From: a virus
Taxonomy: Duplodnaviria; Caudoviricetes
IMG/VR virus record: IMGVR_UViG_2883843030_000002
Coordinates: 1-64,000 of that record
Direction: 5' to 3' (one strand)
Length of the DNA: 64,000 nt
The notes beneath the pieces were generated by a model, which had not been told where the DNA came from, ran no database searches, and worked only from the letters and a program-made list of their open reading frames with translations. Both the position numbers and the translations under genes were made by a program. This document shows, piece by piece, positions 2,358 through 53,339 of the stretch. Within the stretch, counting starts at the first letter, position 1. Each line of letters begins with the position of its first letter.

Positions 2358-2936
2358 CTATGCTTTGTTCTTTTCGGGAATGAAGCAAAAATCTGCGTAA
2401 ATCTCGATGAATTGTTTGGCTGCATACTCAGCCAGCTTTTCGCTTTTGAAGGCGAGCCGAGAGCCGTAGTTCGAGTACGAAGAAGCGAAATACGCGTCCG
2501 AGTAGACGAGACCGCCACTCGCGTACGCATAGTAGTTCGACCGACCGACGCACCGGCTCTTCTCTTCGTCAGATAGAGCTTCGTAGTCTTCCTTGCTGAT
2601 AAGGTCGTACCACCCGTACCAACGGCGCTCGCCATCGACAAACTGAGGTTCCCAGCCCTCATTTAGGGCGGCGGTGATGATGCGAAGTTGGAAATATGCT
2701 TTGATGTCGGGCATTAGATCGCGGAGGCTCCATTCCACGGCACGATAGGCTTTTACTGCTTCGTGTTCTTCGCCAAGTTCTTCGATGGCATCTTTGATGG
2801 TTTTCACACGATCTGTTACGGGGAGTATCTCAGAGAGCTTTTCTCCTATCTGTTCTTTGATGGCCTTTCGACCGACGGCGTTACAGTTGCCATATACAGC
2901 TACTAACGTCTCTTTGTTTAATTGGATTGCTTCCAT
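2358..2936 (-). CDS. Small phage protein that is a remote DGR target (contains VR2)
   Basis: Encodes SRCVGRSNYYAYASGGLVYSDAYFASSYSNYGSRLAF from a TR-homologous segment; start taken at MEAIQL. Confidence 0.9.
   Translation of the reverse strand: MEAIQLNKETLVAVYGNCNAVGRKAIKEQIGEKLSEILPVTDRVKTIKDAIEELGEEHEAVKAYRAVEWSLRDLMPDIKAYFQLRIITAALNEGWEPQFVDGERRWYGWYDLISKEDYEALSDEEKSRCVGRSNYYAYASGGLVYSDAYFASSYSNYGSRLAFKSEKLAEYAAKQFIEIYADFCFIPEKNKA
2454..2557 (-). repeat. DGR variable repeat VR2
   Basis: Aligns to TR 19194-19303 with 11 substitutions, all at TR adenines, plus one 6-nt in-frame deletion. Confidence 0.93.
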
Positions 2937-2962
2937 TTGTTTGAGTTTTTTGATTAGAATGT

Positions 2963-3042
2963 ATCTTATTTGCACTTGCAAATTTAATCGAAAATAATCA
3001 TTTACGCAAGTTTTGGGGCGATTATTTTAATCATATACGCAA
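2963..3042 (-). promoter_or_regulatory. Early promoter/operator cassette, copy 1
   Basis: -7 box TAAATTTG (2979-2986); two TAATCAT.TA.GCAA repeats at 2995 and 3028; GCAAATAAGAT box. Confidence 0.8.
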
Positions 3043-3084
3043 TATTTATTAGTGTAATAATCATTGTTACTATGTTTTGCCTAA

Positions 3085-5328: not shown

Positions 5329-5979
5329 TTATATTTGTCTTTTGAATTTGCGTTTGCAGGCAGAAGGGATGATGACATCTATCGGCCCATGCACCATTTC
5401 TTTAATTGAATCTACGCTTTTTTCATCGCCACGTTCTGTGGCGATATTTATGGCATCCGCTATTGCTCGCTCTTTGTCAAGGGCACTGTAACCGAATACT
5501 TCCTTCCGTCTTTTGTCGGAGAATTCTGGGAAAATGGCGGTTCCACAGCCGTAATATCCAAAGGTGGAGATGCGATAAAATGGCTCATAACATCTGCGAA
5601 AGACTTTCCCATCAACTATCAAGTATTCGCGACTTGTGAGTTTTAGATATGCGACATATTCCGCCTTTGTTGTGTACTCTCCGTAATTGGGGTATTTTCT
5701 GAATACGCTTTCCCAAGGGATGGCATCGAATTCATATTCTTCGGAGCGTTTGCCGTTATAGAATGAGATTCTAGCTTCTTTGTATAACTGGTTCTTGAAC
5801 AACCGGACCTCCATCATCCGCTCCCTGAGGCTATGGACAATAAACGCAACCGGGGCCTCGGTTGCAGATGCCTCTCTTATTCTAACCTTGACCTTTTCTT
5901 TATGTCCGATTGGTCGCGGTTTTCGGCATCTTGGAGGAACCTCATTCTCATGGAATTCAATCTCAATCTCAATTACCAT
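5329..5979 (-). CDS. Hypothetical protein
   Basis: ORF in operon. Confidence 0.75.
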   Translation of the reverse strand: MVIEIEIEFHENEVPPRCRKPRPIGHKEKVKVRIREASATEAPVAFIVHSLRERMMEVRLFKNQLYKEARISFYNGKRSEEYEFDAIPWESVFRKYPNYGEYTTKAEYVAYLKLTSREYLIVDGKVFRRCYEPFYRISTFGYYGCGTAIFPEFSDKRRKEVFGYSALDKERAIADAINIATERGDEKSVDSIKEMVHGPIDVIIPSACKRKFKRQI

Positions 5980-8535: not shown

Positions 8536-9072
8536 TTAAGCGTTATACTTTGCTACGAGTGCGGCGAGAGCCGAGCGATAATCGTGGCTTCCGAGTTCAG
8601 CGAGATCGATGAGCTCTTTTTCGCAAGCATCGAAGTTCAGGCTCTGTTCTTTAGAGGGTTCCTCGTAGAGCTTTCGGAGGCCTTTGCTTCCGTCGAGATA
8701 TGTGATGAGAACTTTTTGCCCTTTGTTCGTCTTTACCAATTCGTATTTGGCGACTCCGCGGGCCTTGTCTTCAGCCGTTATAGAACGTCTGATTCGCTGT
8801 GCTTCCGTGAGAGCTTTTTCTATTTCGCATTCTTCGGTTTTTGGCTCGGTGTAGTAGAATTCCAAGGTTGCGTTCCAGACGTCGCACATTGCTTGGTGAA
8901 GTTCCTGGTCTGCGAGAGGGCGGATTGTGGAGAAGTAACTTCTCATTTGATTGTCGAACTTTGCATCGTAGCCGTTGTTTTCGTACCAGACCTGCTCCAT
9001 GTCGAAGTTGGATTTTTTCTTCACACTTTTCAGGATTTCTATCGCTTTCTTTATGGTTTCTCTTGTATTCAT
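8536..9072 (-). CDS. Hypothetical protein, first gene after early promoter copy 2
   Basis: ATG ~30 nt downstream of the cassette. Confidence 0.8.
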   Translation of the reverse strand: MNTRETIKKAIEILKSVKKKSNFDMEQVWYENNGYDAKFDNQMRSYFSTIRPLADQELHQAMCDVWNATLEFYYTEPKTEECEIEKALTEAQRIRRSITAEDKARGVAKYELVKTNKGQKVLITYLDGSKGLRKLYEEPSKEQSLNFDACEKELIDLAELGSHDYRSALAALVAKYNA

Positions 9073-9098
9073 ATTGGTGGTCTTTTTTGATGTTTTTT

Positions 9099-9178
9099 AT
9101 CTCATTTGCATATACAAAGATAATCAAAAATAATCATATATGCAAGTTTTAGGGGTGTTATTTTAATCATATCTGCAA
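9099..9178 (-). promoter_or_regulatory. Early promoter/operator cassette, copy 2
   Basis: -7 box TATCTTTG (9115-9122); repeats at 9131 and 9164. Confidence 0.85.
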
Positions 9179-9213
9179 TTTATTTTGTCAGATATAATCA
9201 ATATGATAATATT

Positions 9214-9783: not shown

Positions 9784-10392
9784 TTAGAGACTCTTGTATT
9801 CGGTGAGAGCATCAAATGACGGGCAAGCCTTGTTCGCAAACTCTCTATGACCGTGAATTGTTGACTTGGGATATTTCGCCTTTAACCCTTTGAGAAGTTT
9901 GACGAGAGCTGTTCTCTGCGCCGGCGTGCGTGTATCTTTGGGAACATGGCTACCATCGGCGACTTCACCACCAATATAGCATACCCCGATGGAGTTTGAA
10001 TTGTGGCCCACGCAGTGTGCGCCAATTTTGGATTCTGCGCGGCCGGCATGAACGCTGCCGTCTCGATATATAACGTAGTGATACCCTATATCTGAGAATC
10101 CGCGAGCAAGATGCCACTCTCTGATTTGAGCCGTCGTGAAGTCCTTACCTTCAGGAGTCGCCGAGCAATGCACGATGAGTTCTGTGATATTCCGGGAATT
10201 TGTGGTAATAATGCCTAATTTTGCCCATGTGTTGGTGCCGACAACACCATCGACAGTAAGTTTGTTGGCTTTCTGAAATGCCCTGACAGCTTCGTCCGTA
10301 ATCGGGCCGAAGATGCCATCTGCAATGAGATTGAGCCTTGTTTGCAGGGTCTTTACATCATCGCCCCTGCTTCCGAGTCTGAGTATAGTCAT
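9784..10392 (-). CDS. Endolysin: PG-binding domain plus T7-lysozyme-type N-acetylmuramoyl-L-alanine amidase
   Basis: LRLGSRGDDVK..DGIFGP..DGVVG PG-binding repeat; IVHCSAT, GYHY, GHRE, KACPSF zinc-amidase motifs. Confidence 0.93.
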   Translation of the reverse strand: MTILRLGSRGDDVKTLQTRLNLIADGIFGPITDEAVRAFQKANKLTVDGVVGTNTWAKLGIITTNSRNITELIVHCSATPEGKDFTTAQIREWHLARGFSDIGYHYVIYRDGSVHAGRAESKIGAHCVGHNSNSIGVCYIGGEVADGSHVPKDTRTPAQRTALVKLLKGLKAKYPKSTIHGHREFANKACPSFDALTEYKSL

Positions 10393-10403
10393 TTTATCGT
10401 TAT

Positions 10404-10949
10404 TTATTCCGTGGTGTCACAGCTTTCTGATCCAAGTATCTGTTCAATTGATTCATAGCAATCCGCTCCAAGTTTCCTGTTAAGTGCGTCGAGAACACGT
10501 TTCTTAGCTAATTCATGGATTGAATCTTTTAAAGCATCATCGCCAATCCATTCGGCTATATCTCGGATTGTCTCAGGAATTTTTGCTGTACGGCATTTAC
10601 GGCGTCTAGAGTGTTCAAAAACACTCTTGCCTTCAATCACTATGATGGCGACAGCAATAACCATTGACACATACGGCCATTCGTACCAAGTAAAGATGGT
10701 ACCCATCAGTCCTAAGATGAATCCCAAAAGCTGGATTAACCAATACCATGAAATCTTCTCTACGGTCATTCTGAGCTTGCGAGAACGAAGAGGTTCTCCG
10801 AGTTTCTTGGCGGTATATATGCCACTAATAAAATCTATAATACATACAGCTACAGTCGAGAGAAACAGAATGAAGCAGACTATTAGGTGGCGGTATAAAT
10901 GGCCCAAATCGTAGTTGCTGAATGCCATGGAGATTATTTCGTTCATCAC
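10404..10949 (-). CDS. Holin
   Basis: Three TM segments, IDFISG..SRKLRMTVEK and EGKSVFE motifs; upstream of the endolysin. Confidence 0.8.
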   Translation of the reverse strand: MMNEIISMAFSNYDLGHLYRHLIVCFILFLSTVAVCIIDFISGIYTAKKLGEPLRSRKLRMTVEKISWYWLIQLLGFILGLMGTIFTWYEWPYVSMVIAVAIIVIEGKSVFEHSRRRKCRTAKIPETIRDIAEWIGDDALKDSIHELAKKRVLDALNRKLGADCYESIEQILGSESCDTTE

Positions 10950-10958
10950 TCTGTTTGT

Positions 10959-12221
10959 TTATTCGAGGTTGAAGACTTTCTTGAGTTCGTCCACGAGGTC
11001 AAGTTTCTCCCATGTGAACAGTTCGACTTGCTTATCTCCTACATTTTCGATTGAAGGGATGCGGCCGAAGTGTCCGTAGGAAGCTGTTGCTTCGTAAATG
11101 GGGTTGCGGAGTTTGAGTCTCTTGTTGATGCCAGCGGGAGTAAGGTCGACAAGCTGGGAAACGATGTTGGCGATTTCCGAGTCGGCATAAGGAACATGAC
11201 GGCGGACTGTGCTCACACAAAGACTCACAGGCTGGGCCACGCCTATGGCGTATGCAACCTGCACAAGAACTTGATCCGCCACTCCTGCGGCTACAAGATT
11301 CTTGGCGATGTGGCGGGCGGCGTAGGCTGCTGAGCGGTCGACCTTGCTGGGATCTTTACCAGAGAACGCGCCACCACCATGTGCACCATGACCGCCGTAG
11401 GTGTCGACAATGATTTTGCGCCCTGTAAGGCCGGTATCTCCGTGGGGGCCGCCGATGACGAACTTGCCGGTGGGATTGACATGAAGAACGAGATTGCTGT
11501 CAAACAGAGCTGCGACTTCGGGCTGAAGCTGAGAGATAACTCGCGGGAGCAGAATGTTCTTCACGTCTTCACTGATTCTGTTAAGCATGAGGGTATCGGC
11601 TGCAGATTGGGGGAGCCCATGCTCGGCCTTGATGAAGTCGTCGTGCTGTGTTGAGATTACGATGGTGTGGATTCTGTTCGGGCGGTTGCTCTCGTCATCA
11701 TATTCCACAGTTACCTGGCTCTTGGAGTCTGGGCGCAGATAGGTCATAACCTTGCCTTCGCGACGGATGCAAGAAAGTTCCTGGAGAAGCCTGTGGCTGA
11801 TATAGAGCGACAGCGGCATATAGGTTTCGGTTTCATTGCAGGCGAAGCCAAACATCATACCCTGGTCGCCGGCACCCTGTGCCTCTTCTGATTCACGCAC
11901 AACGCCACGGTTAATATCCGGACTCTGACCGTGCATGGCGTTTAGGATGCCGCATGATTCGGCGTCGAACTTGTAGTCGCTCTTGTTATAACCGATTCGG
12001 TTGATGACGCGGCGGGCGATGTCTTGAACATCCACTTTTGCGGTTGAACGATATTCGCCGGCGATGATAACCTGGCCGGTAGTAACGAGGGTTTCGCATG
12101 CAACTTTTGCGTCGCCGTCCTGTGAAAGATGGGCGTCCACGATGGCGTCTGAAATCTGGTCGGCCACCTTGTCGGGATGTCCCTCTGACACGGACTCCGA
12201 AGTAAAAAGGTATTTTCCCAT
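10959..12221 (-). CDS. metK: S-adenosylmethionine synthetase
   Basis: [31 protein letters not shown] signatures; full length. Confidence 0.97.
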
Positions 12222-12258: not shown

Positions 12259-12266
12259 CAAAGTTA
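12259..12266 (-). promoter_or_regulatory. -7 promoter box TAACTTTG upstream of metK-lysis
   Basis: Matches the Bacteroidota TAnnTTTG consensus, ~40 nt before the ATG. Confidence 0.6.
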
Positions 12267-12296
12267 GATATATTACGTGCATCTACTTAATAAAAT

Positions 12297-12339
12297 GCGC
12301 CCGACAAACTGCAAGTGGCTATGCAGTCGTGCCGGGCGC
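12297..12339 (-). terminator. Long hairpin followed by ATTTT, closing the dut-nucleosidase unit
   Basis: GCGCCCG..ACTGCA-loop-TGCAGT..CGGGCGC. Confidence 0.6.
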
Positions 12340-12375
12340 GGCGAACCTATTGGGAAAACGGTTGTGGTAGGCTTG

Positions 12376-12906
12376 TTATCGTTGTGAACGTATGCGGGCA
12401 ATCTCTTCAATGTTTTTTCTTACCTCAGCCCACAGTTCTGCAGATGTTGTATCGATTGTAGTTTCGTATTCGGTTACATCGAGATTGTCGCTGACTATTT
12501 TGACAGAACCGATCAGGTCTATGGGGAACGCGACCATATAATTGAGTTCCATGTCGTATATTACCGGGGAATCGCTGGTGCTTTCCGTAACGAAGCTATT
12601 GCTTGTGTAGCATGGGTACCCGTCCAGGCCAAATTCGTATCCGTTGCGGTAGTCGTCGAATTCAACAGTATTATCTACGAGGCGGTATGATTTGGATACT
12701 TTGGTTACTGTTCCAATTGGTAATCTATTGCTACCGCAGAAACCGACATTGATAAAGCTGTGTTCCTTTGAATACAGCTGCGTCATCGCGCTCAGCGTCT
12801 TTATAACATTTGACGCGCCCACGCCGGTCTTGAATACGGAGTAATTGGTCAAATGCTTCTTTGCCAATTCGTACTCCTCTTTCGTTGCTGTGAGAATATG
12901 TATCAT
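12376..12906 (-). CDS. MTA/SAH nucleosidase-like protein (PNP/UDP phosphorylase superfamily), shortened
   Basis: ILTATKEE, TGVG, INVGFCG, DME, KIVSD motifs. Confidence 0.75.
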   Translation of the reverse strand: MIHILTATKEEYELAKKHLTNYSVFKTGVGASNVIKTLSAMTQLYSKEHSFINVGFCGSNRLPIGTVTKVSKSYRLVDNTVEFDDYRNGYEFGLDGYPCYTSNSFVTESTSDSPVIYDMELNYMVAFPIDLIGSVKIVSDNLDVTEYETTIDTTSAELWAEVRKNIEEIARIRSQR

Positions 12907-12915: not shown

Positions 12916-13557
12916 TTAACTATTGAATATTTTACCCATAAGGGTTGCATCTACTTCCTTCCTTTTTTCGGGAGGAAGGCTCGCGTAGTATTCGTGGAAC
13001 GGAATATCCTTTTTTTCGGTTGGAAGTCCAGAGCCGCTACTGCCGAGTCCACCCCCTCGGCTCTCGCAGGAGAGTTTGTCTACAATTTCAAACTCTGGTG
13101 AAAGAACTTTATAGAATGTCATTTGGGCGATGCGAGTACCACGTTTTATGGTGAACTCTTCGTCGTTATTTTTTACAATGACATTGATATTATCAGTGTA
13201 TCCGGGGTCAATTTTACCGACAAGTACATCACAATCCCAACGATATATACCGGTTGTGTGCTTCCATGGGAAAAAGATATTTGGGATAATACCGAACAGC
13301 AAATTTGGCTCCTTACGTGTTCCGTGCCCTTCCATACCATACAGCTCAAAGCCGCTCCTTGGCTCAATCTTTCCCTCGATATTTTTGGGTAAGTTTATAG
13401 CAATGTTAAGAGGTATCTTACATCTTGATCGAGCCGGCACAACGGTATCTTCTGGCACGGTTAGATCAAAGCCGATGCTCCCAGGCTTGGCTTTTTGCGG
13501 AAGTATATAGTGTGCGCCGAAGTGGGCGACTTCTAACACAATTGAATCTCTTTTCAT
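12916..13557 (-). CDS. dut: Trimeric dUTPase with an insertion and a C-terminal tail
   Basis: GFDL, PRSG, GKIDPGYTD, RIAQM, RGGGLGSSG motifs I-V. Confidence 0.9.
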   Translation of the reverse strand: MKRDSIVLEVAHFGAHYILPQKAKPGSIGFDLTVPEDTVVPARSRCKIPLNIAINLPKNIEGKIEPRSGFELYGMEGHGTRKEPNLLFGIIPNIFFPWKHTTGIYRWDCDVLVGKIDPGYTDNINVIVKNNDEEFTIKRGTRIAQMTFYKVLSPEFEIVDKLSCESRGGGLGSSGSGLPTEKKDIPFHEYYASLPPEKRKEVDATLMGKIFNS

Positions 13558-15106: not shown

Positions 15107-15134
15107 TTCTTTGTGGTAGTTTTGGATTATTTTT

Positions 15135-15214
15135 ATCTTATTTGCATACGCAAAGATAATCAAAAATAATCATTTATGCAAGTTTTAGAGTGATTATTTT
15201 AATCATATCTGCAA
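15135..15214 (-). promoter_or_regulatory. Early promoter/operator cassette, copy 3
   Basis: TATCTTTG at 15151-15158; repeats at 15167 and 15200. Confidence 0.85.
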
Positions 15215-15305
15215 ATTATCGTCATTATGATTAGAAATGACTGTGCGCTGAAATGTATTCTGCACCTCTTTTTGCATATTTGATTAAATGGACTGGCAAA
15301 AAATA

Positions 15306-16030: not shown

Positions 16031-16054
16031 ATCATTGTAATCATTTGTGTTATG

Positions 16055-16117
16055 CAAAGTTACAAATAAATAATCATATACGCAAATTAAGGGAGGATTA
16101 TTTAATCATAACTGCAA
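16055..16117 (-). promoter_or_regulatory. higBA promoter, a divergent copy (4) of the early cassette
   Basis: TAACTTTG at 16055-16062; TAATCATATACGCAA at 16071 and TAATCATAACTGCAA at 16103. Confidence 0.75.
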
Positions 16118-16133
16118 GATTTACAAATTAAAA

Positions 16134-17553: not shown

Positions 17554-19032
17554 TTATGAGAATGAATAAATTCTTAGTGCGCCGGTGCCCTGCTTCTGCA
17601 CGATTGTTGTCTCTACCGTACCAGGGAGAAGCCCACGTTCTTTCATCTGGTCGAGTAAAGACTTCATTTCTTCGCTGTCTGTGAAGAATTTATACTCTGT
17701 TACATCACCTACAAAGTGGAACAGCACGACATATCGGGATTCTCCCCAACGTGTCTTGATGTCTTTCTCGTAGTCCAGAAGTTCGATAGGTCTGTTGGTT
17801 ATCAAGCCAAGCGACATGTGCTGGCAATTGAACCGCTTCTTGCCGTCTGCTGGAGTATATTTCAACCCTAATTCGCTGAATTTTGCCATATGTTGTCCTG
17901 TTAATTTGAAGTATAGATGTTTGCAATCGGCATGGCAGGCCATGCCCTTGAATGAGCCTATGATCTGCTGTCGCCGCTTTCGGGATTTTACTCGATGTAA
18001 TGCTCTTGCCGCTTTAACTTTTATTCTTTTTCGGATGAGCGAATAGATTTCTCCAGTTTCTGCATCATAGAATGTTCTATAGCCGAGAAAATCTACCCCC
18101 TCTGTAATGGGGCGTATAGCAAAAGAAACTTTAATAGTCAGTTTGAGGTTTTTTGCCTCAGCAACAAGGACTTCATATATTGCCCAGGCTTCTTTCTTAT
18201 CATGTGCAAAGAATACGATGTCATCGCAATATCTGTAATAATGAAATCGAATAATCTTGTCGCCCTTACCAATTATTAACCCCTCGCCGGAATATACCGG
18301 AGCCTCAAGCTCTTCGAGATAATGGCATCTGACAACGCCACACATTTTTTTATCGAGCTTGCTGAGGAATAGATTAGCAAAGCACTGTGATGAGCGTAGC
18401 CCTTTAGATAGCCCTTTTGGCATCACGCAAATAAGATTGTCAATCATCGGCAGTACCAGCGGGTCGCTGATATATTCTCTAGCGCACTCCATCATTAAGA
18501 TTTGGTCTATCGAATCATAGAACCCCTGGAAATCACTCTGTCCGAAGAACATCATATTCTCGATGTCGGCCCGCAGGTCGTTCACCATTACATGATGGAG
18601 CCAGTGCATACCACGCCCTTTGATGCTTGCGGCAGTATTGTGGATGAGCGTAGGATATACATGGCTTTCAACGGGCCGCATAATTGCCTGTATCCCTATA
18701 CGCTTGAATACGGGTGGTGCATGAACAATCCTTGCTTTTGGACCGTCCGTAACCTTCATTTCCCGTAGTTCTTCCCGGTAGATTCTAAAAGACCCATCGC
18801 CAAGTTGTTTTTCGAGGAGATTAAGAAACTCTGACTTTTTGGGCCAAAAGTGTTCACGCTGATGTTTGTTTTCAAGATGACTTACTAAGTAATCGAAACT
18901 TTCGGACAGATTATTTGGGTCGATAATCTCGCCGATGAGGTTATCGAGAGGGAATACGTCTGAGTTCGCCCCGATTATCTGCCGGGACGGTAACTCCACA
19001 TCCATGAACGGTATTTCTACAATCTTATCCAT
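17554..19032 (-). CDS. DGR reverse transcriptase with an extra C-terminal domain
   Basis: GPKARIV, ASIKGRG, SDFQGFYDSI, GLSKGLRSSQCFANL, YRYCDD, GVDFLGY; adjacent to TR; start at MDKIVE. Confidence 0.95.
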   Translation of the reverse strand: MDKIVEIPFMDVELPSRQIIGANSDVFPLDNLIGEIIDPNNLSESFDYLVSHLENKHQREHFWPKKSEFLNLLEKQLGDGSFRIYREELREMKVTDGPKARIVHAPPVFKRIGIQAIMRPVESHVYPTLIHNTAASIKGRGMHWLHHVMVNDLRADIENMMFFGQSDFQGFYDSIDQILMMECAREYISDPLVLPMIDNLICVMPKGLSKGLRSSQCFANLFLSKLDKKMCGVVRCHYLEELEAPVYSGEGLIIGKGDKIIRFHYYRYCDDIVFFAHDKKEAWAIYEVLVAEAKNLKLTIKVSFAIRPITEGVDFLGYRTFYDAETGEIYSLIRKRIKVKAARALHRVKSRKRRQQIIGSFKGMACHADCKHLYFKLTGQHMAKFSELGLKYTPADGKKRFNCQHMSLGLITNRPIELLDYEKDIKTRWGESRYVVLFHFVGDVTEYKFFTDSEEMKSLLDQMKERGLLPGTVETTIVQKQGTGALRIYSFS

Positions 19033-19193
19033 TATTAAAGCCTTCAGGACTCCTGTGATGTTTCCGCTTTCCAGACTTTCGTCTGCTGTTGCCGAGGCTC
19101 GTATCCCTCGCAGAAATGCAATGACGGACACGCCGCCGAGCAGGGTCTTACGATTCTGTTGACGGTGAGGGAGCACCGTTTTATCCTTAATGT

Positions 19194-19303
19194 GAGCCGA
19201 GAGCTGTTGTTCGTGTTCGAGTTCGAAGAAGCGTTATTCGCGTTCGAGTAGACGAGACCGCCATTCGCGTTCGCATTGTTGTTCGACCGACCGACGCACC
19301 GGC
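19194..19303 (-). repeat. DGR template repeat (TR); IMH*-like end ACATTAA at 19187-19193 region
   Basis: 110 bp with 12 AAC/AAT codons in the target frame; matches VR1 and VR2 except at adenines. Confidence 0.96.
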
Positions 19304-19428: not shown

Positions 19429-22400
19429 TTATGCCGCGCTCTCCGCAGATTCAACTATTTCGAAATTTCCGCTGAAGGCGAGCCGAGAGCTGACGCTCGT
19501 GCTCGAGCTCGAAGAAGCGTAATACGCGCTCGAGAAGACGAGACCGCCATTCGCGTTCGCACTGTAGTACGACCGACCGACGCACCGGCCCCTATCATTA
19601 GTATAATAGTATCCGTCAGAATAGTTCTTATTCCACTTGCTGTTGTCGGTAGTCACTCGCGAGGCGATTATGTCGCAGTATCTGCCAAATTTAACACGAC
19701 CGATGCAGTATCCAGAGGTGTTTAAGCCTTGGATAACGCTTTCCTCTTTCGTCTGATAGTTGCGGACAACATGGTACTTTGCATCAAGCGGGTATGATGA
19801 TGTCGCAATACGCTTGTCTTTCTTGTACTGAGCGAATGAGGGCACATTGGCGGCAATGAAGTCCATGACCTCCCAGTTGCAGCCGACAAAGTTCTGTATA
19901 CCGAATATAATGTTGCCGATGTTTGAACCGGAATATTTTCTTGTAACCTTTCCATAGCTGTTGAAATTATTCTGTCCGGTAACGTACTGTGAGCCACAAC
20001 CATATCCAGCGTAAGCCTGAATGTCGCGGGTTCCAGTCAACGCCATCACAAGGTTGGCGATGTCCTTGCTTATCTCATAGCTGATACCGTGGAAACCCTT
20101 GCCGCGCATTTCGATAAGATTTAGTATGTCGGCATAGGTATAGTTCATAGTAGAGGTGGGAACAGAAGTATTCGTGATGTTGCCCTCGTTGTCGTACTTC
20201 CAATCGGCATTTGTTACCGATGTGCCGGTACCTGTGCGAGTTTTTACGCCACTGATTGAACGAGGTCGCATAAGAGCGTCAACACTCATGCCGTAGATGC
20301 CGACGAAACGCATAGGCACCCATACCCAGTCTGGTTCGATGGCCTCGATAGCGGCACTGTCAACTGCAATAGCTTCAAGGTTATCAAAGCCAGTAGGCGA
20401 TGTGAACACAATCTTCTTGGCACCGCTTGGCACATCGCAGAACACATAATCACCGATTGAGAAATCGAATAGTGAATGACTTACGGCCATATTGAATGTA
20501 CCTACCACTTTGTCGTTTTCGTCTACGAACACCGCGCCAATTTGTGCGTTGTTGAGCCCGGGCCAGCGAACCTGCTTCATGCCTTCAACTTCGAGTTCAT
20601 AGACATTCATGTTGGCGTTATCGACTATCTCGTAGTCTTCGCCCTTTGAGAGTGCCGTCCCGTTATTGGATGTATAGACACAAGAGTACGCCTTCACAAG
20701 AATATCAGCCAGTTTCTTTCGATTGGTTTTCATTGCCGTGGAGAGTGGCAGAGAGGCGAAACTGCAAGCAAACAGATATTTTTTCTGATTCTTGAAGTCA
20801 TTAACGCCTTTATACCAATATAGGCCGAAACCGAGCATCACATCAAAGCCCTCGCCTGCTTGGTCTGTCGGATCATACTCGGTGCCGTTTGCCATCAGAT
20901 TGTAGTTGGTATCCATAATCTGACGTGCGAGCAGCTTGGACTCTCGGGAATCGTAGGTGCATCGGTACGGGTGGGCTGCATCGAATATCTTGACAAAGTG
21001 ACCGCTTGGCTCATAGTCTTCCTTACTTGTGCCGTTATCGAGATTCGTGATATTCTGACAGTCGTCGTCGGTATCATCGAAACGGACGCACGAATACTGC
21101 GAGTTAAAAAGGGTTAATTGCGGGAAGTATGCTGCAAGGCTGTTAGGCTTGGTTTTGTCAAGTTCGGTGTCATCAATGAGGTCTTCCATAATCCAACGAC
21201 CCGTTACGCCAGAACACTGATTGCTTTCCTCATAGGCACTCCCCGTGGGGTCGAGACCTATAGCACCGCTTGCGCGGAGAGATTTTAGGATAGATGAGGG
21301 AGCCGTAATATTCACGTCCGGCAAACGGAGGTAACGGAGGTTAGACGAACCTACGATGCCGCTGATGAGTGTGTACGGGTCAACATTCGGACAGCCGGCT
21401 AGCATGAGGCGGTTAACACTTGACATGCCTGCGATTGTCAAACCTCCGGGATATGTGAGATTCGGCAGGTTGATAAAGTTTAACTCCGTCATAGTTGCTG
21501 GCAACTCCAAAGTGCTTATCGGAGAGGTTTCGGCAGTGCTGATGTTTGTCAGTTCCGAACCTGATGCAAGCACACTTTCCAGTCGAGGACATTTTGCGGC
21601 GTTGATAGATGCCACTTCAGTAGTTCTTACATCGAGGTGAGTGAGGAACGGTAGGTCGCCGAGATTCATGTTGGTGAGGAATCCGGTGTTGCCTGGAGAT
21701 AGTCTCCAGGACTGACGGTGGTTGGTCGAGCCGATAACGATTTTCTCTGCCAGTTTCATCTGCGAGAACTGGAAGTTCGGGTCCAAGGAGATTTGCGAGA
21801 GGTCAATTTCGCTCATCTGGTCGGCCTGATAGATATAGAGAAGAATATTATCGCCGTGCTGGAAGTTGGTGAAAGTGCCCTGCTCGCCGGCCTTGAGGTA
21901 CATGCCCTGCGTTACGTTGCCACCATCGTTACCAATACCAAAGTAGCCGGACTTGGCGGCACGGAAACGAATTACAGCTCCTGTCTTGGCTCCGATACGA
22001 CCACCAAGTACGTGGCTTGCATCCTTGAAGTCACCGGTTTGGTAATAACCATCGCGGATGCGCCAACGTTGCTCAATAAATCGGGGGAGCGACTGACGGC
22101 CGGAACCATGGAGTGCGTAATAATAGATATCTGTGTATAGCTCAGAATACTTGATGTATTTGCGCTCACAGTCGAACGTACAAACTACCTTGGGCCAGAA
22201 AGCAATTCGCTTCTGCACGAAGTAATAGTTCGCGCCTTTAGGCGAGAATGGGCCAGCACCGATACCGTCGACCTCAGGAAGATTACGCATGAGGTCCACA
22301 ACACCGGGAAGAGTGAGGGTACCGCCCATAGCATTTGCAACCATTTCCTGATTGTCGCAGCGACGGAGATTGTTCCATAAGATAGAGCCACGGCCGGCGT

Positions 22401-25400
22401 AGCACTTGTCGTCTTCAGCAGGATCGAGCTCAGCAGGAATTGTGTTACCGCCATCGTTATCTTTACCGTTGCATGTATCACAGTCGTAAACCTTATTGAA
22501 GTACATGCGTATGGGCTCCATCGCCGATGGGGAATGGTATTCTCCATTCTCCACCCAGCAGCCATCTTCGAGGAAGAACATGGGCTGCATGTTTTTGGCT
22601 TGCTGGTCCACAGCGGCGAGATAGTCGGTGAATGTGTAGTAAGCCAGAAGCGACTGAATGCTCATATAACGCCATGCGTTATCCCTCCACAACTGTTTCC
22701 ATGTTGCAGAGAGTGCGGCCTTGGAATAGTCGCAAGAATCACAGAACTTGAGTACATTGAACAGCTCATATGGAACCTTGCGGCCCATTGCGAGGTCTTC
22801 CTGCAGTTGGTCGTCGTCAATCATGCACTCGAAATACTGCGTCCATGCCGGGTATGACTGCTGTCCGAGGCTGAGTTTTGACACCCATGATGACTGCGTT
22901 TCGACGGGTGCCATCATATCGTCGATTGATCCGACGCCCATAAACCAGTCCATAGCATCGTATGTGATAAGCTCATAGCCAGACACTGGATTGAGGACAT
23001 CTCCGATAATCTGCCACTTGCCGTTGACCTGCTTCATAGAGCCGGTACAGCGGGCCCATTCGCCACCGCTGTGGCGCATGAAGATGTAGTCACGTCCACA
23101 ATACTGCGAAAGCAGATATAGCTTGCTCGTATCAAGTCCTTCGGTGGTTTTGAAACGAGCCATAATCTCCGTGAGTGTTTCCTGGCTTTGGAACTTGCCG
23201 GCGGAATTGAAAGTTGCCTTGCCGAAGAATTCAACAAAGTCGCCATAGTTGCGACAGCCTTTGTTGTAGCCTGATGTGTCTTTGAAACCGAGTGCCACCT
23301 GCTCACCCTTGTCTTCTTTCCAGTTGCCACGGGCATGGAACCAGGCATCACTAAGTGAATCGTTGGTTGCACGGAAAGCGGCAATTGGGTGGTTGGCAGT
23401 CGAGTGATTCATTTGCAAGCCGGTTACAGATATACCGCTCTTACTCCACGTGCCGTCGAAGGCCCTCTGCGCTGGGGTGATATAATCGCTTCCGAGGGCA
23501 CGGAAAGTGGCATTCATCATATCACACACGCCGCAGTCGTTCGCCATGGATGAATCGGAGTAGTCGACCTTAACTGTGAGGATAGCTACTGGTATAGAGT
23601 TCTCGATCACACGCACATATCCGATGCTGAACAGTTCGTACGTCTTGAGTGCATCAGCATTGGTGTAGTCGGGATTGAGTGCGGTAATCTTCCAGTTCTT
23701 TTCTTTGCAGAGATAGAAGCGGTCGTTTTTGATAGGACGCTTGGCTGAGGTAGTACCCTGACGACGCCAACGCACGTTTTCTGCCTTGAAGGACCTCCAC
23801 GGCAAAGTTGGGTGGAAGTAATAAAGCGTACACAAGAAATTTGTCTTGGTGTCGATATCCGAGTCAAAGCTGTCGAATGTAGCTTGGGGGGCTACTACAA
23901 CGTAGTAAGGGAAACCTTTCTCCTTGAGCAGATCCATCGAGGGGCGGTTCTGATTATCGAGGACATTCTCTGCGTCAAACTCGGCAATCATAGCATTGGT
24001 GTCCGTGAGCTTGCAAAGATAGTTTTGGAATGCCTGAGCCCACTCGTAATAGCTATCGTATGCAAGTGTATAGTAGAGGTAAAAGTCTCCGTCTGTGCCG
24101 TCGAATGAAATCTGCTTTTGGTTGAGAATCGCGCCGGAATTGGAAACATAGCCAATAGCACCGATTTCTTCACCGTCGACATATAGTTTGATGGTGGAGT
24201 AATCAGTGGAGCCACGATTGACGGTTATTGTGGACGGTTCCACAACAATTCCTACTGTAACTTTTTCACTGCATCGGAATGAGCGTGTAATCTGCGAGGG
24301 CGTACCGTTCTTGCAGCACACCACAATCTTGTTACCGCAGATATAGAAGCCAGCACCAGAGTTAGGATCGTAGCACTCCATGAGCTTCGCGTCTTCATCC
24401 TTAACGTTATTTGTTGCAAAGGCAAACTGGAACGCCATACCATTTGTGCGTTCAGTGGCAGCCGAGCCAAACGGGGCGTAAGGGATACGGGCTTTGACAT
24501 TTTCGGCAATACGCAGGCAGTTCTCGTTGAGGTAGGTTGCAAAACCATTCGACGACCAGTTAGCCCCAATAACGTCCATAGTATAACCGTTATTGGTAAT
24601 TGTGTGATCGGCCTCAGAATTCGAACGGCTGGCAAAGTCGTATCCAAAGAGTGCTCCTTCCTTAATGATGGCAGAAATAGCAGATCCTACTACGCGCACC
24701 GATATAGGACTGGTTTGGCTGGCTCCGCTCTTCGCATAGAATTGTATTATTGTGGAGCCGTCGGTATCGTAGCCCTGAATCTGCTTGCGTATTGGATAAG
24801 TCTGGGAAATGTAGCAATCGTTGGAGATAATTTCCTCTCCGTTCATGTATACTTCTACTGTTGTGGGCTCCTTACCAGGCGTGTATGCTGCAATCTCCAG
24901 TTCGAGATTATCATACAGTCGGACAATGCCATTGTTAACATCGTTGTAACGGAGTGCCACAATGGGTACGTTAGACTTTGAGTCAACGCACATTATTGTA
25001 GAGTAAATTGTGTTTCCTTTAACGCCCGACGCAACATCCTCGCCGGATATGCGAATTGGATAGGAGCCGTGCTCAAGACGCTCTCCGCCTCCGAGCACAT
25101 TGCAAGGATCAATCGAGATTGAGTGCGAATAGCTATCTGTGATGGTCGCCTCGCCGAGTTTCTTCCATTCGCCGTCAAGATATATCTCGGTCATGACTTT
25201 CACACCTTGCTTCGATACGTTATTGGCGAACTTATACATCAGCAGGTTTTTAGACGAGCCGCCTACTTCTAGTACCGAGCTTGAGGTATAGTTGATAGTC
25301 TGCACGGAAGTACAAGTTACATCGACGGCTGTTACCGTAACGGTACGACGCTTCACGTTGCCCTCTGCATCGTAGGCAACGATAGTGAAGTCTCGCTGGG

Positions 25401-27618
25401 CCGCTTCTGCGAAGTATGGAGTGAAGTCGAACTTGAACGTGTAGTTTGTCGCTGAGGTCGATGAATTCTGATTGACATTCTCGCTCCATAAGGAAAGCCC
25501 GGTTGTTGCGTCGATGATTTCGAGACGACGGATGACGCCCAATACCTCTGTATCGCCATCGAATGTAACAGACTTAATGGCAGCATTTGCTATGATGTCA
25601 GAACCAAACGCTGCGTATATGGCAGGGTTCTCGAGGTATATAGAGAGCGTGGAGCCACTTGCGGAGCCCGAACCGGTGCTTTTGGGGAGCATGATGGGAT
25701 CGCCCATTTCGTTGCCTCGCTTGTCAACAGCCTTGATTATATGGTTGTCGGCATCTTGGTCGAGGTCAAGATGGTCGAAAGCTGATTGTTGCATTTCGTA
25801 GGCCCCCCCTGTTGAAAATGCGTCTTTGCCACCGTTTTCGGGCTGGTCTGAGGTTTTTACAGCACCGCCGCCGCCAAACTCTTTCCAGAGTTCTTTGTTG
25901 GCAAAGTCGGTTACTTCTCCGGTAAATTGGTAGGTTTCCCATTTGTATTCTTCGGCACGAAATGTCAATATAAGACCACTCTTGGCGTAAGTGATGCCGG
26001 AAGACTGCTGTGTCGAGAGTATTGCATCAATGGCACTGTCTTTCGTGTAGTAGCCGGTTACGGTTCGGGGGCAGAGATTATCTACATTGATAATAGCCTC
26101 TGCGCCGGCGGACATCCCTGCAAGGTCTATCCAATTCTTGGTACTCTTGAACTGGGCCTCGGTCACGTTGGGACCGACATATTGATATGTTTTCCAAGAG
26201 CCAGCACTAATGGCGAATGTAATCTGCAAACCGAGCAATGCTTTGTCGGCTGCAAAAACTGCATTGAGGACATTGTGAGTTTGTGTTTCAGCCATTATGT
26301 CCGAGTAATACTCTCCGTCTGGGAGGGGTATTTCTACCGTGGCGTTGAACGTATTGCCGACAGCTGCCCCACCTCCGCCAAATGGTTTCCATTGGGTGAC
26401 GTCATTCCAATCGGCATCTTCGTCGAACACATTCTTCTGCCACTGGTATGCTACCCATTTGTATTTCTCCTCGCCATTACTGCCGAGTTCAGCCATGAGA
26501 AAGGTAACTACTGCACCATAGGCTTGGTAAGCTTCATCAACTGAGCTTACTGCACTCTGGAGTGTGTAGAATGGTTCGTCTGTGTCATAGAGCGCATTCA
26601 GGTTGAGGAACAGCGTAGCCATGAGCTGGTGGCTATGGTTCGACAACTGATTTCTATTCTCGATTGACTGCTCGTAGGCCTCTTTACCCTTGTCTCCGGG
26701 GAAAGCAGTGTTTGCGGTCTCTCCGAGCGCGAGGTCATTTCCGATTATTACGAGTTCACTACTACTCCAACGAAAGGTCTTGTTGTCAGAGGTGCTGATA
26801 TAAACTTTGCCAGACTCTGGGGTAACACCATCTGCTGTAACTACCCCAAAATTTTCCTTATCGGCCCAGTCAGAATAATACTTGAACACCGCCATGTTGA
26901 GTTCGAGGTGTCCTTCTTTATCAGTCCAGTAATCACTGAGTCCGGGACGGAGTATGCCACCAGGAATCGTAGGCGTTGACATTTCGACATCATCTGCCTG
27001 CACCGACGGAATGTCTGCCACCGTAGTTCCTCGGAGGGGACGCAGAACGCCGCCCCAGTCTATAACAGAATCTTGAGCATAAATCGTACTTACTGCAAGT
27101 ATGAACTTGTTTGTTTCCTTGTTATACACAAGCATTGCACCGGGCGTGGTTGACTTTGCGCCTGTCGGAGAGTCTTGGATTGTGATACCTTCGACCATAG
27201 CGTGAAACTCAACAACATCGTCAACGAAACCAGGAAGGTATGCTGCCGGCACTTTTGCGTTGGCATCGAGAGGAGCAATGCCGCTTGGCATACCTTTGGA
27301 ATCGGTAACTTTCTTAGCTGCTTCGGCTGTACTTTTAGCTGTGTCGGCAGTAGACTGGGCCGCTGTTGCTTTTGTTTTTGCATCTTTGGCCTCATTGTAT
27401 GCAGTAGTAGCCGTGTTTGATGCTACTGTTACAGCCTGTTGAAGCGTGTTGTCTTTAGATGCTCGTTCACTCGTTTCTGTGGAAAGCGATTGGTCGACGT
27501 TCTCGATGATGTCAACAAGGACTTTTCCGACTCGCTCTGCCGTGTTTTTGCCCTCACCGTCCTCATATCTGATAAGGTCGGCTTGGTTTTTGAGATTGGT
27601 TTTATTATTCAGACCCAT
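19429..27618 (-). CDS. Giant tail / receptor-binding protein (2729 aa), DGR target with C-terminal CLec-like VR domain
   Basis: Follows the head genes; ends with GIQNFVGCNWE...VGRS...SRLAF, typical of DGR C-type-lectin folds; LRR-like segment. Confidence 0.88.
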   Translation of the reverse strand: MGLNNKTNLKNQADLIRYEDGEGKNTAERVGKVLVDIIENVDQSLSTETSERASKDNTLQQAVTVASNTATTAYNEAKDAKTKATAAQSTADTAKSTAEAAKKVTDSKGMPSGIAPLDANAKVPAAYLPGFVDDVVEFHAMVEGITIQDSPTGAKSTTPGAMLVYNKETNKFILAVSTIYAQDSVIDWGGVLRPLRGTTVADIPSVQADDVEMSTPTIPGGILRPGLSDYWTDKEGHLELNMAVFKYYSDWADKENFGVVTADGVTPESGKVYISTSDNKTFRWSSSELVIIGNDLALGETANTAFPGDKGKEAYEQSIENRNQLSNHSHQLMATLFLNLNALYDTDEPFYTLQSAVSSVDEAYQAYGAVVTFLMAELGSNGEEKYKWVAYQWQKNVFDEDADWNDVTQWKPFGGGGAAVGNTFNATVEIPLPDGEYYSDIMAETQTHNVLNAVFAADKALLGLQITFAISAGSWKTYQYVGPNVTEAQFKSTKNWIDLAGMSAGAEAIINVDNLCPRTVTGYYTKDSAIDAILSTQQSSGITYAKSGLILTFRAEEYKWETYQFTGEVTDFANKELWKEFGGGGAVKTSDQPENGGKDAFSTGGAYEMQQSAFDHLDLDQDADNHIIKAVDKRGNEMGDPIMLPKSTGSGSASGSTLSIYLENPAIYAAFGSDIIANAAIKSVTFDGDTEVLGVIRRLEIIDATTGLSLWSENVNQNSSTSATNYTFKFDFTPYFAEAAQRDFTIVAYDAEGNVKRRTVTVTAVDVTCTSVQTINYTSSSVLEVGGSSKNLLMYKFANNVSKQGVKVMTEIYLDGEWKKLGEATITDSYSHSISIDPCNVLGGGERLEHGSYPIRISGEDVASGVKGNTIYSTIMCVDSKSNVPIVALRYNDVNNGIVRLYDNLELEIAAYTPGKEPTTVEVYMNGEEIISNDCYISQTYPIRKQIQGYDTDGSTIIQFYAKSGASQTSPISVRVVGSAISAIIKEGALFGYDFASRSNSEADHTITNNGYTMDVIGANWSSNGFATYLNENCLRIAENVKARIPYAPFGSAATERTNGMAFQFAFATNNVKDEDAKLMECYDPNSGAGFYICGNKIVVCCKNGTPSQITRSFRCSEKVTVGIVVEPSTITVNRGSTDYSTIKLYVDGEEIGAIGYVSNSGAILNQKQISFDGTDGDFYLYYTLAYDSYYEWAQAFQNYLCKLTDTNAMIAEFDAENVLDNQNRPSMDLLKEKGFPYYVVVAPQATFDSFDSDIDTKTNFLCTLYYFHPTLPWRSFKAENVRWRRQGTTSAKRPIKNDRFYLCKEKNWKITALNPDYTNADALKTYELFSIGYVRVIENSIPVAILTVKVDYSDSSMANDCGVCDMMNATFRALGSDYITPAQRAFDGTWSKSGISVTGLQMNHSTANHPIAAFRATNDSLSDAWFHARGNWKEDKGEQVALGFKDTSGYNKGCRNYGDFVEFFGKATFNSAGKFQSQETLTEIMARFKTTEGLDTSKLYLLSQYCGRDYIFMRHSGGEWARCTGSMKQVNGKWQIIGDVLNPVSGYELITYDAMDWFMGVGSIDDMMAPVETQSSWVSKLSLGQQSYPAWTQYFECMIDDDQLQEDLAMGRKVPYELFNVLKFCDSCDYSKAALSATWKQLWRDNAWRYMSIQSLLAYYTFTDYLAAVDQQAKNMQPMFFLEDGCWVENGEYHSPSAMEPIRMYFNKVYDCDTCNGKDNDGGNTIPAELDPAEDDKCYAGRGSILWNNLRRCDNQEMVANAMGGTLTLPGVVDLMRNLPEVDGIGAGPFSPKGANYYFVQKRIAFWPKVVCTFDCERKYIKYSELYTDIYYYALHGSGRQSLPRFIEQRWRIRDGYYQTGDFKDASHVLGGRIGAKTGAVIRFRAAKSGYFGIGNDGGNVTQGMYLKAGEQGTFTNFQHGDNILLYIYQADQMSEIDLSQISLDPNFQFSQMKLAEKIVIGSTNHRQSWRLSPGNTGFLTNMNLGDLPFLTHLDVRTTEVASINAAKCPRLESVLASGSELTNISTAETSPISTLELPATMTELNFINLPNLTYPGGLTIAGMSSVNRLMLAGCPNVDPYTLISGIVGSSNLRYLRLPDVNITAPSSILKSLRASGAIGLDPTGSAYEESNQCSGVTGRWIMEDLIDDTELDKTKPNSLAAYFPQLTLFNSQYSCVRFDDTDDDCQNITNLDNGTSKEDYEPSGHFVKIFDAAHPYRCTYDSRESKLLARQIMDTNYNLMANGTEYDPTDQAGEGFDVMLGFGLYWYKGVNDFKNQKKYLFACSFASLPLSTAMKTNRKKLADILVKAYSCVYTSNNGTALSKGEDYEIVDNANMNVYELEVEGMKQVRWPGLNNAQIGAVFVDENDKVVGTFNMAVSHSLFDFSIGDYVFCDVPSGAKKIVFTSPTGFDNLEAIAVDSAAIEAIEPDWVWVPMRFVGIYGMSVDALMRPRSISGVKTRTGTGTSVTNADWKYDNEGNITNTSVPTSTMNYTYADILNLIEMRGKGFHGISYEISKDIANLVMALTGTRDIQAYAGYGCGSQYVTGQNNFNSYGKVTRKYSGSNIGNIIFGIQNFVGCNWEVMDFIAANVPSFAQYKKDKRIATSSYPLDAKYHVVRNYQTKEESVIQGLNTSGYCIGRVKFGRYCDIIASRVTTDNSKWNKNYSDGYYYTNDRGRCVGRSYYSANANGGLVFSSAYYASSSSSTSVSSRLAFSGNFEIVESAESAA
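19480..19589 (-). repeat. DGR variable repeat VR1
   Basis: 110 bp colinear with TR, 12 substitutions all at TR adenines. Confidence 0.96.
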
Positions 27619-36430: not shown

Positions 36431-37029
36431 TTTATCAATTCAAATTCGTAAACAAATACATAGGGGTTGCTCTCAAATGTTCCTTTGCCGGATATGCGGT
36501 CTATCAAGGCGGCGTAGGCTTCGCGGGGAGTTCTCGGCATATCTCTCCATTCAAACATTTCAAAACCGTCTGCCATGTCATATTTGAATAGTTCTCTATC
36601 TTTAGTCCACTTGCAGACACCCTCGGCGATACAATCCTCATCGGAAATATCCTGCAAACGCTCCACACGAACGTTGGCGATGCGGATTTGGTGGGGCATG
36701 AGGTCGGCTCGGACAAATAGCTTATTAAACCACCCCATGTCAGCAGGAATGGATATAGGGTTGAGGATAAAGTCTCTATATCTTTGCGCCACGGCTACGA
36801 CCTCGCCAACTCTGTAGGGCAGCTTGCCAATCTCCTCTACAAAGAAGTAATGTTGTAAAACATCTTTATCGTTTGCAAATACATCAAATGTTTCGTTGAA
36901 GTACGCTATCGCAAACTCACATGCCTTATCTAAGTCTTTTTGAGGAACTATCCGCCTCGTCTGCGTCTTCCGACCGCTCAACACGGCTTCGGTGAGTCCG
37001 AATTTATCTGAGAACATTATCTTTTTCAT
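36427..37029 (-). CDS. ASCH/PUA-like phage protein
   Basis: AVLSGRKTQTRR..VRVERLQDIS..EG..NPYVFVYEF. Confidence 0.75.
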   Translation of the reverse strand: MKKIMFSDKFGLTEAVLSGRKTQTRRIVPQKDLDKACEFAIAYFNETFDVFANDKDVLQHYFFVEEIGKLPYRVGEVVAVAQRYRDFILNPISIPADMGWFNKLFVRADLMPHQIRIANVRVERLQDISDEDCIAEGVCKWTKDRELFKYDMADGFEMFEWRDMPRTPREAYAALIDRISGKGTFESNPYVFVYEFELIK

Positions 37030-37044
37030 TGCTTCTTCTTCGGT

Positions 37045-53334: not shown

Positions 53335-53339
53335 CACCT

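Follow-up and report, generated by a model that had tools for sequence, protein, structure and literature searches.

A 28-nt sequence shared by a structured leader RNA and an oppositely oriented 3′-untranslated region in a Muribaculaceae-type prophage: candidate partners for trans pairing

The window analysed here (64,000 nt; positions 1 to 64,000 of IMG/VR record IMGVR_UViG_2883843030_000002) is a prophage of the Muribaculaceae type, with nearly all of its genes on the minus strand. It is part of a genome of 3,494,878 bases in 40 contigs (G000; C2:45819-109818). Two non-coding segments of the window, separated by 41.1 kb, carry near-identical copies of a 28-nt sequence (the 28-mer). One lies at 12 kb, in the 3′-untranslated region (3′-UTR) of a minus-strand gene and ahead of a metK-holin-endolysin cassette, while the other lies at 53 kb, in the leader of a plus-strand unit. 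Both copies are on the forward strand. A sequence-only reading of this DNA had proposed that the two loci are transcribed in opposite directions, and this holds as judged from gene orientation; the two RNAs would therefore be complementary over the shared sequence. The analysis below concerns this pair of sites and the possibility that their transcripts pair in trans.

The 28-mer and its two loci

The 12-kb locus comprises the following features, all on the minus strand:

12376-12906 (-): open reading frame (ORF) of 176 amino acids (aa), whose 3′-UTR bears the 12-kb site
12345-12372 (-): 12-kb copy of the 28-mer, complementary to the 3′ arm of the leader and resembling its 5′ arm
12297-12339 (-): intrinsic-terminator-like hairpin from predicted folds, ∼17 bp with one bulge (whole element, 12289-12339)
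12289-12296 (-): U-rich tract after the hairpin
12259-12266 (-): TAACTTTG box before metK, a putative promoter element without variation among the aligned relatives
10959-12221 (-): metK (Pfam and PHROG matches), first gene of the cassette 9784-12221
10404-10949 (-): holin (Pfam and PHROG matches)
9784-10392 (-): peptidoglycan-binding amidase endolysin (Pfam and PHROG matches)

Read on the minus strand, the 28-mer begins 3 nt past the stop codon of the 176-aa ORF and stops 5 nt before the hairpin. In all five sequences folded, the element was predicted to be largely unpaired beside the terminator hairpin, giving the layout of a 3′-UTR-derived small RNA (sRNA), i.e. an accessible seed directly upstream of the intrinsic terminator of an mRNA. 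The stem of this terminator is conserved among relatives and its loop is variable; truncated folds of the five sequences revealed no conserved alternative fold or antiterminator. The sequence-only reading had placed metK, the holin and the endolysin correctly on the minus strand. Its label of ‘nucleosidase’ for the 176-aa ORF, however, found no confirmation: Pfam, PHROG, NCBIfam, a PDB sequence search and a protein atlas returned nothing, and the AlphaFold model (predicted local distance difference test score, pLDDT, 38) was unusable. This ORF, with its GVGASNV motif, is kept in all relatives. A dUTPase-like gene (12916-13557) comes before it; at the other side, the S-adenosylmethionine synthetase gene (metK) lies directly upstream of the holin and endolysin genes.

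The plus-strand unit at 53 kb, one of the few in the window, consists of a leader of ∼250 nt followed by two ORFs. The elements of the leader are (sequence classes A and B are described further below):

53327-53334 (+): promoter-like TATCTTTG box of the unit, conserved in nine of nine class-A homologues; its function is putative
53377-53548 (+): conserved core of the leader RNA, from folds, covariance model R1 and covariation
53387-53449 (+): 5′ arm
53458-53481 (+): small hairpin
53475-53483 (+): 5′ half of the terminator
53486-53513 (+): 53-kb copy of the 28-mer; 3′ arm in the long-hairpin fold
53514-53529 (+): 3′ strand of the outer helix
53532-53540 (+): 3′ half of the terminator
53541-53548 (+): U-tract

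The motif TAnnTTTG, which we take to be the Bacteroidota -7 promoter consensus, occurs 15 times across the window against 10.8 occurrences expected, and is not enriched.

A search of the window confirmed that 12345-12372 and 53486-53513 are identical at 26 of 28 bases, as had been reported. With up to three mismatches allowed, these were the only two matches in the window, and none of 100 dinucleotide shuffles gave at least two; by arithmetic, about 2e-4 pairs at 26/28 would be expected by chance per 64 kb. The search for further copies that had been suggested was extended to the whole genome (3,494,878 bases, 40 contigs) and found these two only (a reversed-pattern control gave none). A host origin of the leader was considered and rejected: the 12-kb site was the sole genome-wide match to it outside its own locus, other blastn-short hits being 12-17 nt long with E >= 0.15. 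Within the window's genome the likeness of the two loci is confined to the 28 nt, in which a variable centre is flanked by invariant ends of 10 nt that carry a weak CCTA/TAGG dyad. Neither locus had a blastn match in the INPHARED copy of the GenBank phage collection. The window contains no tRNAs, leaving a tRNA-derived or att-like origin of the 28-mer unsupported. A link to the diversity-generating retroelement (DGR) of this prophage was considered and rejected, the 28-mer lying outside both its template repeat and its variable repeats. Another short direct repeat (25 nt, 92% identity, T/C-rich) occurs at 37025-37049 and 49157-49181, apparently at gene starts.

The sequence-only reading had also pointed to a GTGGCT hexamer near both copies and proposed that it makes a loop contact between the RNAs. 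The hexamer is indeed present at 12315-12320 and 53454-53459, but sharing a 6-mer is unremarkable, and the proposed contact did not hold up, since the hexamer varies at both loci in relatives without matching changes.

The 53-kb leader RNA

The plus strand of 53335-53560 had a predicted folding energy of -85.4 kcal/mol (z = -4.6), as against -76.4 kcal/mol (z = -3.6) for the opposite strand. Two folds were predicted. One is a long interrupted hairpin, in which the 5′ arm at 53387-53449 pairs with the 28-mer as 3′ arm. In the other, a 9-bp stem between 53475-53483 and 53532-53540, followed by the U-tract, forms a terminator. Since the terminator stem crosses the long hairpin, the two folds are mutually exclusive. 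When the 5′ arm was omitted, the terminator-like hairpin was the predicted fold in five of five sequence classes, among which the stem sequences differ while their complementarity is retained. Classes A and B and G252 have a clear U-tract, G031 a poor one. At the apex of the terminator fold is a hairpin made by the invariant GGCUGUGGUAGGCC; the apical loop of this fold displays GUGGUAG, the right part of the 28-mer, invariant in 13 of 13 distinct homologues. The combination found here, of two exclusive covarying helices and a U-tract, is that of terminator/antiterminator leaders; on these models the leader is a bistable RNA of this kind, the long hairpin acting as antiterminator.

The leader core has no ORF, stops being present in all six frames. 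A search of the whole window against Rfam 15 at gathering thresholds gave a single match, to RT-3 at 19003-19155. At E <= 10, the only signal within 53250-53650 was a 16-nt match to c4-a1b1 at chance level (11 bits against a gathering threshold of 46.7; E = 4.6). Just downstream of the core, the stretch 53560-53590, which separates the terminator from the start of the first ORF and includes GCAAAUAUGAAG, is conserved in all nine close homologues; a small upstream ATG is not kept in frame with this ORF, and the stretch may be a translation-initiation element.

The leader core is almost invariant among these nine homologues. Conservation peaks at 53487-53537 (mean identity 0.97-0.99, as against 0.6-0.8 in adjacent genes). 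A DNA run with a related variant showed no differences in 53337-53615, and 26 in the rest of the 1.8 kb compared: 12 over 347 nt on the left side and 14 over ∼1 kb on the right. Among RNA data, no run containing the locus was listed, and three raw-read runs linked to it by a species label alone gave no reads on 52900-54700, a result without bearing on transcription. Covariance model R1, built from the nine close homologues, identified diverged members in G144, G147, G031, G252 and G278, plus one IMG/VR fragment. In an alignment of 13 distinct leaders fitted to R1's own structure, 96.3% of cells were paired and 24 of 55 pairs had changed on both sides; the shuffled controls averaged 7.8 (none of 500 reached 24) and slid controls gave 4-8. 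The helix containing the left two-thirds of the 28-mer showed compensatory changes at 10 of its 13 pairs, and the helix containing GUGGUAG was invariant across homologues. The cis structure of the leader is thus seen to covary.

A search of 401 genomes of the family gave six hits, the window's own genome included; 44 genomes of the genus of G144 gave two hits and no new class, and a pattern search of IMG/VR returned only two contigs that were already known. A class-B leader in G445 lies on a 54%-complete fragment without the metK locus. The genes that follow the leader, in the window and in diverged members, are:

53585-54070 (+): ORF of 161 aa (ORF161), predicted to be beta-rich, no known fold (cargo region, 53585-54627)
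54067-54627 (+): exported ORF of 186 aa with an N-terminal signal-peptide-like sequence
L049, 1701-2084: alternative-cargo locus
L048, 357-1304: alternative-cargo locus
L031, about 900-990: alternative-cargo locus

The two cargo ORFs of the window had no match in Pfam, PHROG, NCBIfam, a PDB sequence search or the protein atlas, and a Foldseek search of the PDB with an AlphaFold model of ORF161 (pLDDT 67.5) gave no match at E <= 0.001. The diverged leaders precede other cargo, namely a TM2/SHOCT-like small membrane protein in G252 (by our own reading) and signal-peptide proteins in G278 and G031. Since the cargo differs among these members, the leader is the conserved part of a variable-cargo cassette, and from these comparisons it appears to behave as a portable module for accessory genes.

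Co-conservation and predicted pairing of the two sites

Relatives of the prophage were found in Muribaculaceae, Bacteroidales and ‘Porphyromonadaceae’-labelled metagenome-assembled genomes and in two IMG/VR proviruses. The sequence-only reading had named co-conservation in related phages as a check on its proposal, and the two sites proved to be co-conserved: both were kept in all seven assemblies or records that contain the leader and the phage metK locus (the window, G061, G062, G063, G065, G144 and G147). In the six assemblies with both sites on one contig they were always on the same strand, 31-41 kb apart (35.2 kb in G061, 39.4 kb in G062 and 38.7 kb in G065); in G063 they lie on two contigs. 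Four class-A relatives each contained exactly two matches to the degenerate pattern per genome or record. At the 12-kb locus, 12296-12372 showed identities of 0.79-0.89, as against 0.30-0.51 in the neighbouring non-coding sequence.

In class A the 53-kb copy is invariant, while the 12-kb copy varies in its centre (a 1-nt deletion and two substitutions), this centre measuring 7 or 8 nt between the invariant 10-nt ends; among the 12-kb variants, one end change gives a G-U pair and another a terminal mismatch. The leader arm of class B (G144 and G147) differs in its centre, and the 12-kb element at the homologous position is also altered. The two class-B sites share class-specific blocks, with a middle block displaced by 2 nt between them, plus a longer 5′ flank that reaches ∼9 nt further upstream and overlaps the 5′ half of the terminator. 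Variation confined to the centre of the site, with one G-U change and a 2-nt shift, fits what would be expected of RNA pairing.

When the 28-mer was scanned against both strands of the whole window, its best non-self partner was the minus strand of the 12-kb site, at -44.6 kcal/mol (predictions for this duplex lay between -44.3 and -44.6); the next site reached -33.0 kcal/mol and the background was -13.6 kcal/mol (standard deviation 3.8, n = 12,792). The second-best site, at 5531-5570 (+), has 10 contiguous complementary bases, and the genes around it run on the other strand; this match is probably due to chance. Complementarity beyond chance, as expected of an antisense pair in general, is therefore found between the two sites, with opposite transcription taken from gene orientation. 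Within class A, the duplex of the leader arm with its own 12-kb site was predicted at -44.4 to -48.2 kcal/mol (-46.3 for G063). The class-B leader arm formed a duplex of -53.6 kcal/mol with its own 12-kb site, and of only -30.9 to -37.2 kcal/mol with those of class A. The predicted trans duplex covers part of the 5′ half of the leader terminator in class B and abuts it in class A.

Trans pairing, its alternatives and related systems

That the two RNAs pair in trans, as a conserved partnership, is the reading favoured here, with modest confidence. Trans pairing is the most economical account of a unique, co-conserved and partly co-varying pair of opposite sense, one member of which is an arm of a terminator/antiterminator switch. 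The data show the repeat, its uniqueness, its co-conservation, the covarying cis structure and the complementarity, whereas the transcripts, their pairing in vivo, its direction and its outcome are inferred. In the proposed mechanism, the leader, taken as about 210 nt long, would adopt one of its two folds. In the first, the 5′ arm would pair with the 3′ arm, including the 28-mer, hiding the 5′ half of the terminator; in the second, the terminator would form, its loop containing the 28-mer and its tip presenting the invariant GUGGUAG. As transcribed from the opposite strand, the 12-kb copy would be the last unstructured stretch of the lytic-operon mRNA before its terminator, and would amount to a contiguous copy of the 5′ arm of the leader minus an inserted hairpin. 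With both RNAs present, pairing in trans could extend over about 28-37 nt. The direction leaned to is that the 12-kb 3′-UTR RNA, made when the lytic genes are on, acts on the leader, where it would displace the cis 5′ arm and so alter how the accessory-gene transcript is terminated or processed, or how stable it is. The reverse, in which the leader RNA acts on the lytic mRNA beside its terminator, as in P4 immunity, appears nearly as likely. This was the direction of the sequence-only reading, and the architecture of the sites, with an accessible seed beside the 12-kb terminator and a bistable leader at 53 kb, fits the opposite one equally well. The more specific idea of a leader RNA that controls read-through towards metK and lysis remains a suggestion: P4 provides a precedent, but here the terminator at 12 kb appears to be strong and unconditional, and a conserved promoter-like box of its own precedes metK. 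The broader proposal of an RNA-only switch in Muribaculaceae temperate phages, in which RNAs encoded tens of kilobases apart would pair and, whatever the direction, tie the accessory genes of lysogeny to the lysis module, is put forward as a tentative possibility and is rather doubtful.

Several results weigh against trans pairing. The leader on its own is predicted to favour the long hairpin (-81.8 kcal/mol, as against -61.3 kcal/mol with the terminator enforced), which buries the 28-mer in cis. The trans partner must compete with an arm on the same molecule, and the net gain on co-folding was 10.9 kcal/mol, a modest value because the cis hairpin must open. When the scan was repeated with a 55-nt arm, the 12-kb site (-53.6 kcal/mol) was no outlier, an unrelated GC-rich site reaching -53.0 kcal/mol. 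The class-A leader arm paired as well with the class-B 12-kb site (-48.1 kcal/mol; -46.4 for the arm of G063) as with its own, so the covariation in specificity is one-sided, being seen from the class-B arm only; in an ungapped comparison by eye, the class-B 12-kb site matched its own arm at ∼20/29 positions and the class-A arm at ∼21/29. Co-evolution of the two sites rests on two sequence classes, essentially one independent event, and the fitting of the leader alignment to R1's own structure counts on the same side. A simple terminator scanner made no call at either the 12-kb hairpin or the leader, in the former case because the stem is bulged and in the latter because the loop is large. Finally, three genomes with a leader (G031, G252 and G278) yielded no second site, either by BLAST with their own leader or on inspection of GTGGTAGGC occurrences (10 of 10 in G252, 6 of 6 in G278 and 14 of 37 in G031), their leaders lying on short contigs or at a contig end.

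Other explanations of the shared sequence were weighed against these data. A single DNA-binding protein of phage or host, for example a repressor, an activator or a roadblock close to terminators, might recognize both 28-mers as duplex DNA, with the complementarity of the RNAs incidental. Two copies of the same orientation are kept in every relative that has both loci, their invariant 10-nt ends form a weak CCTA/TAGG dyad, and a protein of altered specificity could explain why the sites change together. The conserved blocks, however, lie 7 or 8 nt apart in class A, and in class B the middle block is offset by 2 nt from one site to the other, contrary to the fixed geometry expected of such a site, and the 53-kb copy is embedded in a covarying, strand-specific RNA with G-U pairs, with a promoter-like box upstream and a U-tract downstream. 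Neither copy is at a promoter, one being at about +150 in the leader and the other between a stop codon and a terminator, and no candidate binding protein was identified. A shared protein-binding site, which the sequence-only reading had offered as an alternative, thus accords with the equal orientation of the copies but poorly with their variable spacing and the RNA structure; as a DNA site it is considered unlikely. A protein might instead recognize RNA, namely the 5′ arm of the leader and its look-alike in the 12-kb minus-strand transcript, the two RNAs never pairing; an attenuation protein, for example, might free the 5′ arm so that the terminator forms, and also bind beside the 12-kb terminator. 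Both elements lie upstream of terminators and share, in the same sense, CUACCAC, then GUUU(A/U)CCCA and the bases that follow. Further, the bistable leader needs an effector, because the antiterminator fold is favoured by ∼20 kcal/mol when alone. On the other side, the 5′ arm is interrupted by a 24-nt hairpin missing from the 12-kb element, the shared sequence changes between classes so that the protein would have to co-evolve, and no candidate was found. Recognition by an RNA-binding protein is also less economical than direct RNA pairing, and is held to be quite improbable.

Two further explanations concern the DNA itself. The 12-kb copy might have no function of its own, being a relic left when part of the leader's 3′ arm was duplicated, or might be kept alike by occasional recombination. 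In class B the likeness runs ∼9 nt further upstream, as if the duplication had once been longer; the 12-kb site has also drifted at its centre, and three leader-bearing genomes showed no second copy. Against this, the 12-kb site retains 84-96% identity within class A while its non-coding flanks have 29-54%, and its position is constant in all seven assemblies with the locus, among genes only 73-79% identical; moreover, 28-37 nt are too few for efficient gene conversion. These islands of conservation make the relic duplication mentioned in the sequence-only reading a poor explanation, with little probability left to it. Lastly, the two copies, being direct repeats with the same orientation and a spacing that stays roughly constant, might be recombination sites (att-like, or for an invertase or resolvase) that delete or circularize the 41 kb between them. 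Such excision would split the phage, the head genes being between the repeats and the tail and lysis genes outside; an integrase-like ORF lies at the left end of the window, the repeats are imperfect and of unequal length, and no joint was seen in contigs from DNA reads, with one side covered. Recombination between the repeats is accordingly regarded as very improbable.

RNA-based control in phages is known in detail mainly for enterobacterial phages such as P1, P4, P22 and Gifsy. In P1/P7, the recognition sequences of c4 RNA are repeated as complementary sites (a1b1 and a2b2) beside the RNA and at its target. The prophage studied here similarly has complementary sites adjoining a phage RNA and at its presumed target, but differs from c4 in size, fold and genomic layout, and its c4-a1b1 signal, as noted, is at chance level. 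In Rfam the c4 system is represented by RF01695 and RF03163; the family names and their taxa appear in a table of PMC2864571.

For P4, the relevant passages of PMC4825925 describe an untranslated leader RNA complementary to repeated targets, one of them upstream in the same transcript, with pairing controlling termination; there, pairing of CI RNA with seqA and seqC enforces termination. By analogy, the 3′ arm of the leader would correspond to CI/seqB, the cis 5′ arm to seqA, and the 12-kb element before its terminator to seqC. The second target of P4, however, is downstream in the same transcript, whereas here it would be 31-41 kb away, in another unit and on the opposite strand; only an upstream cis complement was found in the leader, and not the targets both up- and downstream on the transcript of the regulator itself that characterize the P4 type. 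Nor is there a match here to Rfam models of the C4/CI type, the host phylum is Bacteroidota, and the leader is followed by a variable accessory gene instead of the replication genes of P4. IsrK, from the Salmonella prophage Gifsy-1, is presented in the same source as a leader with a terminator that gives rise to a short RNA and a read-through mRNA, and in which RNA pairing in trans remodels the leader and switches downstream prophage genes (PMC4825925). In that description IsrK acts on its own read-through isoform, whereas the partner here would be a distant, oppositely oriented lytic operon, and there is no homology. The 12-kb element can also be compared with 3′-UTR-derived sRNAs such as MicL and DapZ, a class that is mentioned in one passage of PMC4825925. 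As in these, a single-stranded seed lies directly 5′ of the terminator hairpin of an mRNA, at the end of a coding operon; the presumed target, however, is a structured leader and not a ribosome-binding site, and the 12-kb short RNA is putative. To our knowledge, Bacteroidota lack Hfq. The leader finally resembles attenuators and riboswitch platforms in having two exclusive helices kept by compensatory changes, a U-tract and then an ORF, but differs in that no ligand domain or Rfam family was recognized, the sole conserved candidate effector being another phage RNA. The pair of sites therefore resembles the style of control of P4 CI, P1 c4 and IsrK, and is a member of none of those families.

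Other features of the prophage were noted in passing. The integrase-like ORF (1-1278, +) matches PF00589 (22 bits) and XerC (25 bits) only weakly. Other phage genes of the window encode a portal, a head protease, a tape-measure protein and a primase. The prophage contains a complete DGR, with the RT-3 RNA at 19003-19155 (-; 67 bits), a reverse transcriptase ORF at 17554-19176, a template repeat at 19186-19303, and variable repeats at 19472-19589 and 2440-2557, the latter 17 kb away. The first of these variable repeats lies at the C-terminal end of a 2729-aa protein (19429-27618), and the differences are mainly at template adenines, on the minus strand. A 614-aa protein (41819-43663, -) has ParB N-terminal and ParB helix-turn-helix domains, and 61967-62452 (-) has a weak match to the Thoeris inhibitor Tad5 (PF25190; E = 1.2e-4; 22.7 bits, where the cut-off is 27 bits). 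The window also has a family of repeats with six to seven members (50-107 nt), all in minus orientation ahead of gene blocks and with TAnnTTTG-like boxes, which probably marks co-regulated phage promoters with a shared operator or leader. Its copies are:

2936-3047 (-): repeat-family copy
9072-9183 (-): repeat-family copy
15108-15219 (-): repeat-family copy
16053-16122 (-): repeat-family copy
40736-40847 (-): repeat-family copy
44878-44989 (-): repeat-family copy
53182-53293 (-): repeat-family copy

A narrow search of the literature on Bacteroidota phages turned up nothing comparable to the pair of sites described here. If the proposed pairing is true, these phages would gain their first described circuit of regulation by RNA-RNA pairing, built on an uncatalogued structured RNA family. 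It would thus bring a new family of RNAs with a terminator/antiterminator switch, a testable 3′-UTR element that mimics a cis regulatory arm, and a handle on how accessory genes and lysis are coordinated in prophages of a dominant family of the mouse and human gut. With its varied cargo, the leader may serve these phages as a general module for expressing lysogenic-conversion genes.

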